Origin: a virus
Taxonomy: Duplodnaviria > Heunggongvirae > Uroviricota > Caudoviricetes
Length of the DNA: 31,448 nucleotides
IMG/VR virus record: IMGVR_UViG_2526164666_000034
Direction: 5' to 3' (one strand)
Shown here piece by piece: positions 1,422 to 31,448 of this stretch. Each line of letters opens with the position of its first letter. Position 1 is the stretch's first letter. The notes beneath the pieces are model-generated. The model ran no database searches. It was not told the origin of the DNA and was given only the letters and a program-made list of their open reading frames with translations. The position numbers and the translations under genes are program-made.

Positions 1422-3893
1422 TTAAAAATCAGCCTGATTCGGGATCAGTTTTTGCCAGATAACTGAAACGTATTTTGCCTGGTAACGGGCGTCATCAAGT
1501 GCATTATGGCGCTCACCTTCGAATGGAATAGCCGTTCTGGCATCGAAGTCTATGGCTTTCCCCAGCTCAACGATTGTGCGTACATCGCGATCGTTGTAGT
1601 AACGCCACGGGCAGGGGATCCCCTGCCGTTCGTATGAACGGCGCAAAATCGTGTTGTCGAAGTTGGCTCCATTTCCCCAGACCTGAACAAAAAATTCACC
1701 GGAGTTTTCGTCGATAAATTCCCGCAATTGTAACAGTGCATCATCTAACGGGATTTCATCGGTCATAATGGCAGATTGCGCTTCGCGTGATTGCTTAAGC
1801 CACCATTTAATGGTGTCCCGATCAATGACCCCGCCAGCAGTTTCCAGATCGATAGTCTTACTAAATTCCGGCCCCATATCTCCGGTTTGCGGATCGAAAA
1901 ATATTGCACCTATTGAGATGATCGGGGCATCAGGATTTTTTCCCATGGTTTCAAGGTCGATCATTAGATGGTCACACGTCCTGCTGGTGGATGTGATTTC
2001 TTGATGACCGTTCACCTTAATTGAGTGATCTGCCGTCTCGCCAGTTTCATTATCGCTATCGTGATGCTGATTGCCGTCAGTGTTCTCCTTGTGTGGACGT
2101 TCAGCGCCTTCCATTTCCTCCGGATCATCTTCCTGAACTTCAACCTGATACTCTTCATCGAATGTTTCCTGGTATGTTGCGTCGCCCATCACCGCGCCAC
2201 AATCAGGGCAGTTGCCGCCGCCGGTCTGACCGCAGGCGGTGCAGACTTTTTCCGGTTCCTGTTGCGCTACTGGCTCAGGTTGTTTCGTTTCTGGCTCGTT
2301 TTGTTGCGTATTTGGGCTGTTTTGTTCCGCTTTCTGGTCGTTCTGTTCCGATTCTTGCTGGTTCTGGTTTACAGAATCGCGGGTTTCAATCCCCTTTACC
2401 CATTTCGGATCATTCGGGTCGCTAATCCCTGCAACAAATTCTCCGCGAGAGGCAGCAAGCAACTTATCGGCGTCAGGCTGGCTGATATTGGCTGCCTGCA
2501 TAATTTTGTTTACTTCGTCAGCGGTAACTTTTACCGGCTCTGGTTGTGCGGTCGTGTCAGATGCACCAGTATTTTGTTGTGAACCTGAGTACGTGCCGTT
2601 TTTACGTGCGAAGTATTCCTCTTTTGTGATTTCCGTAGCTCCCAAGGCTAGTGCTTTTTCCAGACCAGAAAGTTTGTTTGCGCGACCGTATTTTTCGCCA
2701 TCCTTGTCGGTGAAGAGGAAGTAGAACGGCCCCTCACGCTCTACAGATGGTTCGACTTCCACTTTGCATTCGGTTTTTTCGTTGCCCGGAATTGCCGTTT
2801 CCACTGCATCAGTTTCTGGTACTGGCGACGAGAGAGTATCAGTTGCGCTCTGATTTCTTCCTTCATCTTCAAACACGCCCTTTGTAGTCAGGTATTCAGT
2901 AATGTATTTGTTCAGTGCCACAGGGTCTTTGTGAATGTCGATCGGACGTTCACGGACAAGGCCAAAAATAGTCTGGCGGTCGTAGCGAAGGGCATCAGGC
3001 TGTTTGCGCATTGATGCCGAGATACGCTTCCAGTCTTCGCGGTCGTTGTCGATAACTTCATTTTTTGCCCAGCGATGGATGCTGCCGTCAATGTTTCCGG
3101 CATCCACATCACCAGGCCAGAGAGCGTAGGCCAGTTCTTCATCCGCGTTTTCCATGTCTGCTTGTATTCGCGATGAATGGCAGCAATGACCGGGCTGATT
3201 TTTCCTGTTGAATTTTCAGTGTGCTGTTGATTGGTTCTGGCGCGGGCGAGATCAACAACAGACGTGTATTTTCCGGTTTCCTTGCGTTCACCTTCGCGAC
3301 GTTTTTTCCAGATGCGCATCTCTGCCTGAATTTCGGGCCATTTGGCACCAGGCTTACATTTATGCTTAACCCACCCGATGGCAAACAGTTTGCGTTCCGG
3401 ATACATAGCGTTAATTTCAGGCGTTTTCATCAGTGCTTCAACGATATGCCCGTCAAAAGGTAGCAACGTCTTCCTGCAGTAATTCCTGCGCGTCAATCGC
3501 CATATCAACGGTGATGTTTTCACATGTACCGAACTTAACCAGGACCGCGTTCTGTACTTCAAGGGACAGCTTGTCAAAATTGACGTTCATCGGATCGGAT
3601 TCTGGTTCGACCGGAATAAAGGAAGCGGATTCCTCATCCCAGCGGTTTTCCTGCATATATTCAGCATCCCAGGAATCGAGGGCAGGGCGGGGTATACCGG
3701 GTTTATCCTCGCAGACAAGAAATTTATAAGCGCAGTCCTGAGCAGCCGGATAATGTTCCAGGAATTGCCAGTGAAATTTTGCGCGGGCGCGACGTTCATC
3801 ACCGGCTTCAATGGCAGTGGCTACAGCGACGGCACCTTCTTCCTTTATTGCCTGTTCGTCCGGAATGGCGGCGCAAATAAAGACTTTACTCAT
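1422..3893 (-). CDS. Prophage exonuclease (~823 codons); C-terminal DnaQ-like 3'-5' exonuclease domain; frame broken twice at homopolymer runs
   Basis: Three consecutive minus-strand ORFs (3893..3453, 3430..2912, 3155..1422) join into one 2472-nt (3x824) frame if one base is removed from the run at plus 3455-3458 and one added to the run at plus 3148-3151. C-terminal part has exonuclease-like acidic motifs (DLET..., ..HNALDDA..) and a CxxC...CxxC zinc ribbon. Confidence 0.6.
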
Positions 3894-3988
3894 TTTGTTT
3901 TAACCTCATTACAGATTTCAGGGTGAACGAATCCCTGCCATTGCTGGCATTTTTAATCCGTTGGTATGGCGTTAATATGGCTGGCGGG

Positions 3989-4177
3989 TTATCCAGCCGG
4001 TATTTCGTTATTCAGGTTCAGCGATACTTTTTTTAACGGGAGGCATTCACCGGGGATTTTTTGTTCGTCCCTTACCTGAATGCAGGATGACTTACTGTCA
4101 TAAATTCCGGTAATCACATTTTGTGGCTCACCCGTTATAAGAAAAACGGTCATCACCAGTGCAAATGCTGAAGTCAC
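3989..4177 (-). CDS. ydfD: YdfD-like small membrane protein (position downstream of dicB)
   Basis: 62-aa ORF with hydrophobic N-terminus, start overlapping the dicB stop by 4 nt; same position as ydfD in the Qin prophage as recalled. Confidence 0.45.
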   Translation of the reverse strand: MTSAFALVMTVFLITGEPQNVITGIYDSKSSCIQVRDEQKIPGECLPLKKVSLNLNNEIPAG

Positions 4178-4362
4178 TGCTGTTCTCCGATAATACCAAG
4201 TTCAAGAAGGGCAATTCTGGAAAGTATGGAATTATCATTGAGAAGATAAGGTTCATATTTTCTCATCTTAATGGCATCTTCCGTAAACTCCCGGTTACTG
4301 AGCAGAACACCAATATCAAAACAACCTTCAGACGTATTAACGTTTGGTAATAACGTTTCCAT
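4174..4362 (-). CDS. dicB: DicB cell-division inhibitor
   Basis: 62-aa protein METLLPNVNTSEGCF..GV..SN..FTEDAI... closely resembles E. coli DicB as recalled; lies immediately downstream of DicF, as in Qin. Confidence 0.85.
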   Translation of the reverse strand: METLLPNVNTSEGCFDIGVLLSNREFTEDAIKMRKYEPYLLNDNSILSRIALLELGIIGEQQ

Positions 4363-4536
4363 TATCGCGTCCTCAACAATGAATTTTGTGATGCGGTGCC
4401 TGGTGCCTCCAGGTGACGTTAACCAGTTAACAATTAACGCCGGATACAGAGAATCCACCCATAACACTGTTTTTGGTTTTAACTGTTCCGCGTGCGCTCA
4501 GCCGCATTCACCACATCACAAAATTCACTTTAAAAA

Positions 4537-4589
4537 GGGCGGCAGAGCAGTCACGGAGTAAAACTGATACCGCCAAACGTCACCAGAAA
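4537..4589 (-). ncRNA. dicF: DicF antisense sRNA (53-nt core) followed by a U-tract
   Basis: Minus-strand sequence TTTCTGGTGACGTTTGGCGGTATCAGTTTTACTCCGTGACTGCTCTGCCGCCC followed by TTTTT (plus 4531-4536) matches the recalled DicF sequence, which targets ftsZ mRNA. Confidence 0.85.
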
Positions 4590-4922
4590 ATTGATAACAG
4601 AGGGCGTTGCAGCGGGGTTGTCACTTAAGCGTATGGTCAACCTGACAACCCGGTGTCCTCAACGGGGAAGGAATAACCCCTCCATACTTACCGCCGCGCC
4701 ATTTCGCGGATTGCCACAACCGGAAGCGCACGGTCGACGAAAATTTAACGACAGGCTATCTATGAACCAGCTACCTCGCCGTGCGCTTTCGCGTTATGGT
4801 CTGACTTTTCAGAGAAATATCCTTTCAGTAAACTGTCAGTGCCGGATGTTCACCCGTGTCCGGCGCACGCACTCCACTTCACCCGTGGAGAACTCCTTAA
4901 TTACCAACCCTCAGGAGGGTGA

Positions 4923-30202: not shown

Positions 30203-30644
30203 TCGAAACCCTGCTGGATTTTTCGGGGCTGGAGGACATCAGCCGCGATTTGCAGCTTCTGAGTGGTGCGAGAAATAACCGGGTGCTGCGTGAGGCAACC
30301 CGTGCGGGTGCGAATGTGCTGAAAGAAGAAGTGGTGTCACGGGCACCGGTACGCAGGGGAAAACTGCGCCGCAATGTGGTGGTCCTTCCCGGCGCTCCCG
30401 CGATGGCGGGATGGAATCCGGTGTCCATATCCGTGGTGTTAATCCGGACACCGGTAACAGCGATAACACCATGAAGGCGGATAACCCGCGCAATGCTTTC
30501 TACTGGCGGTTTGTGGAAATGGGGACCGTGAATATGCCACCGCACCCGTTTGTGCGCCCGGCATTTGATGTGCGCAGTGAACAGGCGGCACAGGTGGCGA
30601 TTGCGCGGATGAACCGGGCCATTGATGAGGTACTGAGACGATGA
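30199..30644 (+). CDS. HK97 gp10-family tail-component protein; frame broken at a 3-base run
   Basis: ORFs 30199..30474 and 30411..30644 join with one extra base in the run at 30408-30410; the C-terminal ..FYWRFVEMGT.NMPPHPFVRPAFD.. pattern is typical of this family. Confidence 0.6.
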
Positions 30645-30985
30645 CGGAGGCGGATTTGTATCCTCATCTGGCGCATCTTGCCGGCGGGCAGGTGTACCCG
30701 TATGTGGTCCCCTGCTGGATGGCAGGCCGTCGGTGGCGCTTCCGTGGGTGGTTTTCAGCCTGATTTCATCGGTGTCGGCGGACGTGATGGGCGGGCAGGC
30801 GGAGTCCTCAGTGTCGGTGCAGATAGACGTTTATGCCGGGACTGTGACGCAGGCGCGTCAGATACGTCAGGACGCCCGTGAAGCCATAATGCTGCTGGCC
30901 CCGGGATCCGTCAGTGAAATGCAGGACTATATTCCGGAAAACCGCTGTTACCGTGCAACCCTTGGAGTTTCAGGTCACGGTGTGA
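30641..30985 (+). CDS. Tail-completion protein (DUF3168 / gp11-like); frame broken at two homopolymer runs
   Basis: ATGA overlap with gp10; N-terminus MTEADLYPHLAHLAGGQVYPYVVP, then (one extra base in the run at 30709-30712) ..LPWVVFSLISSVSADVMGGQAESSVSVQIDVYAGT.., and (one fewer base in the run at 30959-30961) an ending ..RATLEFQVTV; total 345 nt, 3n. Confidence 0.55.
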
Positions 30986-31014
30986 CTTTTTTCTTTTTTC
31001 TACAAAACCCATAC

Positions 31015-31036
31015 CCCGCCGCGTGCGGGTTTTTTA
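31015..31036 (+). terminator. Terminator-like hairpin upstream of the major tail gene
   Basis: CCCGC-CGCGT-GCGGG stem-loop followed by six T; AGGAGG RBS of the next gene follows. Confidence 0.45.
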
Positions 31037-31051
31037 TTATCAGGAGGCAGA

Positions 31052-31448
31052 ATGTCTGCTTTGTATGAACGCTCACAGCTGACGCAGGTGATGATTTCCA
31101 TCTGCCCCGGCGACTGCTGAAACTATGGATAAGGCGGAATATCTGCGCCTGGACTGCACCACCAAGGAAGTCCAGTTCACCGCCGGTCAGAAACAGGATA
31201 TTGATGTGACCACGCTCTGCTCCACAGAGCAGGAGAACATCAACGGTCTGGGGGCGTCGTCCGAGATTTCCATGTCGGGTAATTTTTATCTGAATCAGGC
31301 CCAGAACGCCCTGCGTGATGCCTATGACAATGACACGGTGTATGCGTTTAAGGTGCAGTTTCCGTCCGGTAAGGGCTTTAAGTTCCTGGCGGAAGTGCGT
31401 CAGCACACCTGGTCATCCGGTACCAACGGCGTGGTGCAGCAACGTTTC
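31052..31448 (+). CDS. Major tail protein (partial, runs off the window end); frame broken at a 4-base run
   Basis: AGGAGG RBS then ATG 31052 gives MSALYERSQLTQVMISICP..; the next frame continues ..TAETMDKAEYLRLDCTTKEVQFTAGQKQDIDV.. to the window end; one fewer base in the run at 31105-31108 joins them. Confidence 0.5.

Follow-up and report, generated by a model that had tools for sequence, protein, structure and literature searches.

Twelve genes are broken in the lambda-like prophage that adjoins ompW in the E. coli O26:H11 strain DEC10B, and the question arises whether they record the decay of the element or faults in the record itself. The stretch of DNA analysed here (the window, 31,448 bases) corresponds to positions 141555-173002 of contig AIGQ01000043.1, its end being the end of the contig, in assembly GCA_000250015.2, a draft from a 2012 project comprising about 70 genomes. 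It was aligned to 7-8 complete genomes carrying the same prophage, at 99.7% identity to the window; in the finished strain 11368 the copy is truncated by IS600. An earlier, sequence-only reading had placed at least a dozen frame breaks on homopolymer runs, and had regarded most of the pseudogenes as sequencing indels rather than biology. The alignments make it very probable that the pattern is an artefact of this one draft assembly, with some 23-26 one-base errors, and not gene decay.

A census of the indels and correction of the reading frames

The window differs from the complete genomes by 23 one-base indels, 20 of which fall within the 12 genes (Table 1), all of them intact in every one of the 7-8 complete relatives. 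The comparison with closed genomes that had been proposed as a check finds 21 of the 23 in none of them, i.e. strictly private to the window, while seven complete genomes have 0, 0, 0, 0, 0, 0 and 2 private one-base indels along with 0-80 private substitutions. Leaving out the exonuclease patch, only 8 substituted bases are private to the window; its indel to substitution ratio is about 3:1 vs about 1:80 in the relatives, an excess of roughly 100-fold.

Table 1. Coordinates of indels, patches and other features in the window (window vs references)
Feature	Position	Strand	Detail
Exonuclease frameshift 1	3144/3145	-	missing A between C3144 and G3145, not in a run
Exonuclease mosaic patch	3174-3383	-	36 substitutions
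Exonuclease frameshift 2	3455-3458	-	A4; A3 in all references
dicA-like HTH repressor break	6779-6784	-	T6 vs T7
DUF1627 frameshift	9164-9897	+	missing G at 9643/9644
Intergenic indel, paa to hokD	11592-11596	.	A5 vs A6
DUF968 (YdfU-like) break	13410-13414	+	A5 vs A6
Antiterminator Q break	14381-14387	+	A7 vs A8
Poly-G tract, intergenic, after tRNA-Arg	15457-15470	.	G14; G9 to G14, length-variable in every relative
tciA/TerB-like pseudogene	15552-15985	+	A7 at 15571-15577 plus TAG stop
Indel directly after DUF3927 stop codon	16150-16155	.	T6 vs T7; shared with DEC10C draft only
nanS-p in-frame change	18223-18234	+	one 6-bp unit lost, GCTGAC x2 > x1
terS indel	22845-22849	+	A5 vs A4
terS indel	22874-22879	+	A6 vs A5
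terS indel	23268-23272	+	A5 vs A6
terS indel	23285-23289	+	A5 vs A6
terS indel	23311-23315	+	A5 vs A6
Protease-capsid fusion break	25750	+	G vs GG; 592 aa split into 216 + 376 aa
Portal ORF1 truncation	28247	+	C vs CC; corrected 454-aa protein is that of strain 2313
162-bp tandem repeat, ORF after portal gene	28683-29053	+	2.3 copies vs 3.3 in all references
Repeat ORF break	29243	+	extra C, not in a run
Repeat ORF indel	29405-29410	+	G6 vs G7
Head closure break	30060	+	G vs GG
gp10 change	30270-30272	+	GAG vs AGA, private
gp10 break	30386-30387	+	TT vs TTT
gp17 (tail completion) break	30709-30712	+	C4 vs C5
gp17 second indel	30962-30963	+	TT vs T
Indel just past gp17 stop codon	30987-30992	.	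T6 vs T5
Major tail gene break	31098-31099	+	CC vs C
Major tail gene indel	31436	+	G vs GG

The breaks are real and many, but only about half of the indels lie in true homopolymers. Five of the fifteen sites named from the sequence are exact (both 3455-3458 and 6779-6784, 13410-13414, 30709-30712, and the capsid near 25750); at seven others a break does exist, the lesion lying 1-22 nt from the named run, in a shorter run or in none (exonuclease, 3148-3151; portal, 28249-28252; repeat protein, 29238-29241; head closure, 30063-30065; gp10, 30408-30410; the gp11-like gene, 30959-30961, with its lesion in the gene here called gp17; major tail, 31105-31108). No break is present at the portal run 27124-27129, since the ORF from 27098 reads through it and contains a complete Pfam portal domain. 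The integrase, terL and nanS-p, described as intact, are indeed all open. The indels of Q, all five of terS, those at 29405-29410 and 31436, and the three intergenic ones (11592-96, 16150-55 and 30987-92) had gone unlisted.

Undoing the 23 indels leaves 0 internal stops across all 12 genes. The corrected HTH repressor, DUF968, Q, terS, capsid, head closure and portal ORF1 proteins are 100% identical to reference proteins, and the corrected gp17 is an exact copy of a very common one; the sole amino-acid change in gp10 stems from the GAG at 30270-30272, which reads as a compensating -A/+G pair. No exact counterpart of the corrected exonuclease, of the 353-aa repeat ORF or of gp10 turned up elsewhere in the protein look-up. 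The four intact forms whose frequency was looked up (Q, HTH repressor, DUF968 and terS) each occur on at least 999 contigs, and, among some 15 billion proteins, the broken DUF968 N-terminal, terS, protease, capsid and portal fragments occur on AIGQ01000043.1 only: for DUF968 this means one contig vs at least 1000 with the intact form (the sister draft DEC10C is intact), for terS one contig with the broken 181-aa form vs at least 1000 with the intact 187-aa one, and for the protease-capsid fusion both fragments on that contig alone. After correction nothing is broken in the integrase, excisionase, repressor, Cro, the replication genes, Q or the lysis genes of the prophage, nor in its two terminase subunits, capsid, portal and connector genes.

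Run length, position and the sister drafts

Miscalls affect 0.018%, 0.087%, 0.18%, 0.28%, 2.2%, 10%, 25% and 25% of the runs with lengths of 1 to 8 bases, respectively. Runs of at least 5 hold 12 of the 23 indels in 3.5% of the bases (p = 3e-12), and in runs of at least 6 all nine errors are deletions. Flow-based (454/Ion) and other indel-prone reads are known to miscall run lengths in this way, and a first process of this kind, in which a run comes out one base short or long with a chance that rises steeply with its length, runs of at least 6 always being under-called, would explain this part of the pattern; the platform was presumably flow-based or otherwise indel-prone. Genuine replication slippage, however, likewise becomes more frequent in longer runs, so that the run-length response is by itself not discriminating.

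Runs of no more than 2 bases hold 8 of the 23 indels. A second class, in runs of 0-3 bases, gathers near the end of the contig and around the borders of the mosaic exonuclease patch; of all 23 indels, 9 fall within the last 2.25 kb before the contig end (p = 1.6e-5). Such clustering suggests that a poor consensus of repeated prophage DNA is at work, and not run-length miscalling alone. The second process would accordingly operate wherever other lambda-like prophages in the genome have almost the same sequence, namely in the last 2 kb or so before the contig break and at the patch edges; the last 2 kb of the window match a paralogous prophage of a related genome at 97-100% identity, and the repeats probably contribute to the consensus errors. 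The last bases of the window (TTTC vs TTTTC in strain 2313) suggest one further undercall at the contig end.

A point against the artefact is that the chromosomal flank contains 0 errors vs 4.3 expected at prophage rates (P = 0.014). For its runs of at least 5 alone the expectation is 1.45 errors only (P(0) of about 0.23, by arithmetic from the run-length rates), because the flank is devoid of any run longer than 6.

Drafts of the same project show different private indels in the same prophage, those in the longest runs being shared. A case in point is DEC10C, which carries a different set of six private indels; four of these lie in the 1.9 kb next to the end of its contig. The A8>A7 change of Q is common to DEC5E, DEC8A, DEC10B and DEC10C, which belong to three serogroup lineages, and the dicA T7>T6 change is also found in the DEC8A draft, the resulting 106-aa fragment, which is named for DEC5D, occurring on 5 other contigs. 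Along the same line, others have suspected frameshift errors in cas genes on the chromosomes of DEC9A, DEC9E and DEC10D (PMC5592225).

Inherited lesions and rival explanations

A possible reading, though one to which less than an even chance is given, is that the assembly and not base-calling is mainly at fault, the reads of several near-identical lambda-like prophages having been merged into a chimeric consensus. It would account for the mosaic exonuclease patch, for the nanS-p 6-bp unit (its one-unit form is also found in another phage, L009) and the 162-bp unit that are missing, the latter lost in frame, as well as for the short-run indels near the contig end, seen likewise at the contig end of DEC10C. 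The contig stops inside the major tail gene, where the paralogous prophage of a relative is 100% identical, and the median number of copies of a terS 62-mer in a genome is 3. The exonuclease patch in turn changes between two other alleles within 300 bp, matching a paralogous prophage allele at 3174-3325 and a third allele at 3350-3383, with the two exonuclease indels bracketing it; the missing-A form of the first is in none of 8 references, a paralogue or 120 IMG/VR alleles. Yet no paralogue in any O26 complete genome carries the allele at 3350-3383, which leaves that part of a chimera without a demonstrated source; 22 of the 36 changes fall at third codon positions of the normal frame, so that the patch alleles are natural and a real recombinant is equally possible; and the long A/T-run deletions of the early region need no repeat.

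A second, rather unlikely, reading accepts most indels as artefacts and takes some of five recurrent long-run variants (Q A8>A7, dicA T7>T6, 16150 T7>T6, terS 23268 A6>A5 and 29405 G7>G6, the five of the 23 that recur in other assemblies) for real slippage mutations in DEC10B. Real A-run frameshifts do occur in this prophage family, as tciA proves.

In tciA, the A6>A7 change, which had been taken for a sequencing error at 15571-15577, and the TAG stop are identical in 8/8 references including the finished 11368 (the intact phage JLK-2012 has A6); likewise, the G lacking from DUF1627, also attributed to sequencing, is missing in all O26/O103/O111 references and present in the DEC5E, DEC8A and SKDS01 contigs. 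The two lesions being common to relatives, homopolymer-slippage decay is real in the family, and the view that most pseudogenes are sequencing indels, which holds for those that are private and correctable, fails for these two. The genes that are truly dead are accessory ones only (tciA/TerB, DUF1627 and a fimbrial remnant), with lesions inherited by all relatives.

As for the five variants, A7 of Q recurs in the DEC5E, DEC8A and DEC10C drafts, in the AFAI02 draft and in other contigs, and alignment shows it in 8 of the 9 further contigs compared, non-DEC drafts and two Logan contigs among them; AFAI02 carries it with 0 substitutions vs 11368 over 16 kb. The 173-aa C-terminal fragment that it leaves is on 24 contigs, one of them a Logan contig seen in at least 20 samples. 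The 14381 and 16150 variants are common to the sister strains DEC10B and DEC10C, and those at 23268 and 29405 are shared with strain 2313, alone among complete genomes in sharing the 30-site portal patch of the window; elsewhere the former is confined to strains 2313 and MBT-5 (2/680 complete-genome records), and the latter is present in 68/1,236, strain 2313 among them, sitting in a paralogous prophage in RM8385, the one G6 record inspected. On the other hand, the five sit in the longest runs, those in which miscalls are the most likely to recur; a single project with about 70 genomes supplies 4 of the 24 Q-A7 contigs, which are thereby enriched several-hundred-fold; DEC5E (O55:H7), DEC8A (O111) and DEC10 (O26) cannot share the Q variant by descent; and in 8/8 complete genomes the run in Q is A8 and those at 6779 and 16150 are T7. 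The five may be real slippage variants, which the present comparisons cannot call; a real change in Q or terS would leave the prophage genuinely unable to activate its late genes or to package DNA.

Real, recent and heavy decay in DEC10B into a non-inducible remnant, for instance through a mutator episode or relaxed selection, is highly improbable: twelve genes are broken, several more than once, slippage mutation rates climb with run length too, and the prophage is damaged beside a clean chromosome, but that flank shows 0 differences from 11368 over 8,579 bp (100% identity), so that real mutations have had hardly any time to arise, about 8 private substituted bases vs 21-23 indels is the opposite of any known E. 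coli mutation spectrum, terS carries five indels and zero substitutions in 470 bp, intergenic runs are affected as well, DEC10C has a different indel set, and clustering at a contig end is a property of an assembly, not of a cell.

Likeness to known systems

An artefact of the draft, the reading preferred here, has its closest counterpart in the homopolymer miscalls that generate artefactual pseudogenes in draft genomes built from 454, Ion Torrent or noisy long reads: one-base indels, dependence on run length, long runs under-called, privacy to an assembly, identical long runs hit again in sister drafts of the project and known proteins upon correction, although about a third of the window's indels, in runs of 0-2, are clustered at the contig end and the mosaic edge. 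Collapsed or chimeric prophage consensus in drafts offers a second likeness, through the contig break in a module 97-100% identical to a paralogue, the lost tandem-repeat unit and the patch with alleles of other prophages, although the paralogue is one seen in a relative, and real recombination may have produced the patch. Phase-variable contingency loci, driven by slipped-strand mispairing, resemble the A8 tract of Q and the G7 and G9-G14 tracts, which vary by at least one unit among assemblies, but the affected runs are mostly short ones, spread across genes that have no relation to one another, and the variation seen is between assemblies. Finally, the defective lambda-like prophages of EHEC and the cryptic Rac, Qin and DLP12 of K-12 are elements of the same kind with real, inherited lesions, whereas the window's 12 core-gene breaks are neither inherited nor accompanied by substitutions.

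The prophage and its one-base indels

The loci compared with contig AIGQ01000043.1 (173,002 bp, NCBI assembly GCA_000250015.2) differ from it by no base; as the window represents contig positions 141555-173002, it closes exactly at the contig end. NCBI names for the fragments it encodes carry 'Escherichia coli DEC10B', and AIGQ is consistent with the accessions of the DEC draft-genome collection, where DEC9A-E have AIGK-AIGO and DEC10D has AIGS (PMC5592225). It is a prophage of the lambda-like type, integrated beside ompW. Integrase comes first, then excisionase, exonuclease, dicB, repressor/Cro, replication genes, paa, hokD, DUF968, RusA and Q; these are followed by tRNAs, tciA, nanS-p, lysis genes, terS/terL, protease-capsid, portal and connectors, and last by the beginning of the major tail gene. 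A counterpart with 99.7% identity resides in complete O26, O103 and O111 genomes.

Aligned with the prophage loci of eight complete genomes (L001-L008; that of strain 11368, L003, spans the first 20.4 kb only), the window departs from these references by 23 one-base indels, namely 16 deletions and 7 insertions; both kinds occur, as the sequence-only reading had it. Twenty of them fall within 12 genes, all open in the references: the dicA-like repressor, DUF968, Q, protease-capsid, portal ORF1, head closure and gp10 are hit once each, terS five times, and the exonuclease, the repeat ORF adjoining portal ORF1, gp17 and the major tail gene twice each. In the NCBI annotation, the repeat ORF is joined to portal ORF1 as a single feature flagged as frameshifted. 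The final bases of the window hold one further likely undercall.

Besides, nanS-p bears a 6-bp in-frame loss; the idea that this loss marks a sister lineage is rejected, its sole IMG/VR match being a different phage. The poly-G tract after tRNA-Arg differs in length in every genome and is hypervariable, its lengths being unequal even in near-identical genomes.

Features of the prophage, with positions in the window or, where named, in a reference locus
Position	Feature	Observation
3174-3325	Exonuclease patch, first part	Allele of another prophage in O26 genomes (L010)
3350-3383	Exonuclease patch, last part	Third allele, partly common among IMG/VR prophages
3174-3383	Exonuclease patch, whole	Three-way mosaic within 300 bp: ortholog, other O26 prophage allele, third allele
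	dicA T6	Recurs in 6 contigs
9643/9644	DUF1627	G missing in all references too; retained in DEC5E, DEC8A and SKDS01 contigs
14381-14387	Q A7 (A8>A7)	Recurs in 24 contigs; some are non-project drafts, one is a Logan contig present in at least 20 samples
15134-15374	tRNA genes	ARAGORN calls three 3' of Q: CAT anticodon (RefSeq: tRNA-Ile), tRNA-Lys(ttt) without RefSeq annotation, tRNA-Arg(tct)
15457-15470	Poly-G tract	G14 in the window, G9 to G14 across eight references; intergenic, upstream of tciA
16150	T6	Recurs in DEC10C
L003 20464-21620	IS600 truncation in 11368	3' of antirepressor gene; then effectors nleA, nleH1-2, nleF, nleG, espM1
23268	terS A5	2 of 680 complete-genome records, strain 2313 among them
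L002 23832-24394, 32223-36920	terS, major tail, tape measure of strain 2313	Annotated as frameshifted in the complete genome
25109-26886	Prohead protease (Peptidase_S78) and major capsid protein	Single 592-aa fusion ORF in references, 5' of portal gene; 645 aa in L007 and L008 through a 159-bp insertion
27098-29519 (L001 27109-29693)	Portal and repeat ORFs	Two open frames, 454-aa portal and 407-aa repeat protein, with ATGA overlap
27124-27129	A6 run in portal ORF1	Read through
28683-29053	Tandem repeat, ORF 3' of portal gene	162 bp (54 aa), 2.3 copies, one unit short of the references (all 3.3 copies, 98% alike)
29405	G6	68 of 1,236 complete-genome records; in RM8385 (sole one inspected) within a paralogous prophage
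30270-30272	Private 3-nt block	Readable as a compensating -A/+G pair

Sequencing error or decay

Errors in the references instead of the window can be dismissed, as eight independent assemblies, including the finished 11368, agree and their reading frames are open.

Of the 23 indels, 12 fall in runs of at least five bases, which make up 3.5% of the sequence (p = 3e-12). Per run, miscalls occur at a rate of 0.018%, 0.087%, 0.18% and 0.28% for lengths 1 to 4, and 2.2%, 10%, 25% and 25% for lengths 5 to 8, and all nine indels in runs of six or more are deletions; error dependent on run length, with long runs under-called, is what an artefact would produce. The breaks had been said to sit on homopolymer runs, which is borne out for the 12 in runs of at least five but not for eight in runs of at most two, two of these lying outside any run. 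Nine of the 23, moreover, crowd the final 2.25 kb of the contig (p = 1.6e-5), and because of these eight and these nine the indels are to be regarded as two classes, not one. Over the stretch matching ~29.2-31.2 kb, RM8385 carries a second prophage 97-100% identical to that of the window; the error-rich end is therefore a repeat, which would explain why the contig breaks there and why its consensus is weak.

Genuine decay of the prophage would entail a normal excess of substitutions beside the indels and lesions common by descent. Counted in the same way, strictly private one-base indels number 21 in the window (21 of the 23 being found in none of seven complete genomes) versus 0, 0, 0, 0, 0, 0 and 2 in those genomes. 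The private substitutions of the latter range from 0 to 80 per genome, and the window has only 8 privately substituted bases outside the 210-bp mosaic patch in the exonuclease. The ratio of indels to substitutions is thus about 3:1 in the window versus about 1:80 in its relatives (2 indels and 159 substitutions), and for the 12 core genes no lesion is common by descent. Furthermore, 18 of the 23 indels appear in no other sequence examined, independent assemblies included. Exact protein look-up places both the variant form of nanS-p and the fragment of the broken exonuclease in a single record, AIGQ01000043.1; likewise, among ~15 billion proteins, the fragments of DUF968-N, terS, protease, capsid and portal are confined to this contig.

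The chromosomal flank on the same contig shows neither substitutions nor indels over 8,579 bp versus 11368, hence the strain has barely diverged. Damage confined to the prophage might be read from this clean flank, where 4.3 errors would be expected (P = 0.014), yet it is not accepted as firm evidence, for no run in the flank exceeds 6 and only 1.45 long-run errors would be expected (P ~0.23).

Undoing all 23 indels renders 12 of 12 genes full-length and free of internal stops. Seven of the proteins then match the references at 100% identity: repressor, DUF968, Q, terS, capsid, head closure and portal ORF1. Intact repressor, DUF968, Q and terS each occur in at least 999 contigs, the corrected gp17 in at least 1000. 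In terS there are five indels and no substitution. Three corrected products are exceptions, having no exact match: the exonuclease, gp10 and the repeat-ORF protein, which measures 353 aa; the first and the last are absent from the 15-billion-protein collection.

Hazen et al. 2012 is said to be the paper of the DEC draft-genome project, whose other drafts show like errors regardless of phylogeny (DEC10C, DEC8A and DEC5E). DEC10C, of the same clonal group as DEC10B and 7 substitutions in 14.3 kb away from 11368, has six private indels, a set unlike that of DEC10B, four of them no more than 1.9 kb from where its own contig ends; in this draft DUF968 is intact and nanS-p lies in three pieces. DEC8A shares the dicA T7>T6 change with DEC10B and adds indels of its own, and the Q A8>A7 change is found in DEC5E, DEC8A, DEC10B and DEC10C, which represent three unrelated serogroup lineages. 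A draft that does not belong to the project, SKDS01, has no error of this type, its differences being the restored DUF1627 G and one more 1-bp change. Frameshift errors had been suspected earlier in the cas genes of DEC9A, DEC9E and DEC10D (PMC5592225). Searching the literature for the project's sequencing platform gave no result. On the comparisons made, the frame breaks are for the most part judged to be an artefact, not a biological feature.

Recurrent variants and the exonuclease patch

Five of the 23 also turn up in further assemblies (Table); they may be either recurrent errors or real slippage variants, and are left uncalled. A 30-site patch in the portal gene of the window is common to strain 2313 alone. 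As for Q, the draft AFAI02 has no substitution versus 11368 over 16 kb, yet carries A7 against A8; the site may be truly hypermutable, or A7 may be an error. That the Q tract, perhaps along with the recurrent T7, A6 and G7 tracts, would act as a hypermutable switch turning late transcription off and on in lambda-like prophages of this family seems very improbable; if true, part of the apparent error would represent contingency-type variation in natural E. coli populations.

The exonuclease patch is flanked by the two indels of that gene. Its alleles are natural, as third positions of codons in the normal frame account for 22 of its 36 changes and the final seven are spaced by multiples of three. 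Attribution of the indels themselves to the paralogous allele is rejected, since both are absent from the paralogous prophage L010 and from 120 IMG/VR alleles. No second assembly has the combination (the best among 5,426 complete E. coli genomes being 96.5% over 401 bp and 95.3% over 129 bp), and a 45-mer taken from it is missing from IMG/VR; the homologue search, clustered at 90% identity, is too coarse to resolve the patch. It could be a true recombinant or else a consensus of chimeric origin.

Inherited lesions and the corrected prophage

Three lesions are real: tciA/TerB, DUF1627 and a fimbrial remnant are annotated as pseudogenes in all references, that is, they are common by descent. The TerB-like break had been seen correctly and is inherited, with A7 followed by a TAG stop in the window and in all eight references versus A6 in the intact tciA of phage JLK-2012; the frameshift in ORF 9164..9897 (DUF1627) is equally real and not specific to this assembly. 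The break proposed in the portal gene at 27124 does not exist, the Pfam portal domain being complete in ORF1 (positions 2-321 of 321). The portal gene bears the NCBI label 'frameshifted' throughout the complete genomes examined, all of which have the two ORFs of 454 and 407 aa; this reflects either a systematic annotation artefact or a conserved junction, a candidate for programmed ribosomal frameshifting with a fusion product. The 407-aa repeat protein has no significant Pfam match. In strain 2313, the annotated frameshifts may be its own homopolymer errors or real decay.

Taken together, the sequence-only reading was an essentially correct quality-control call with imprecise details. Five of its sites are exact, seven mark real lesions 1-22 nt away in a shorter run or none (for example an A lacking at 3144/3145 and a surplus C at 29243, where the break is real and the run named is wrong), and three are not assembly-specific. 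Q, the five terS indels, 29405-29410, 31436 and three intergenic sites had been overlooked.

False truncations would be passed on to users of the DEC drafts in prophage typing, pseudogene counts, 'defective prophage' calls and protein databases; DEC10B fragments already stand in NCBI as 'dicA transcriptional repressor', 'small subunit terminase' and 'structural protein'. The present audit parts the real lesions from the artefacts and names five long-run sites that call for caution before interpretation.

After correction the prophage looks complete up to the point where the contig stops, and a heavily decayed, non-inducible prophage is therefore an unwarranted reading. DEC10B, whose chromosomal flank is that of 11368, retains the late genes. 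In 11368, also O26:H11, IS600 interrupts the counterpart prophage after ~20.4 kb, whereas that of DEC10B, once corrected, appears complete to the contig end.
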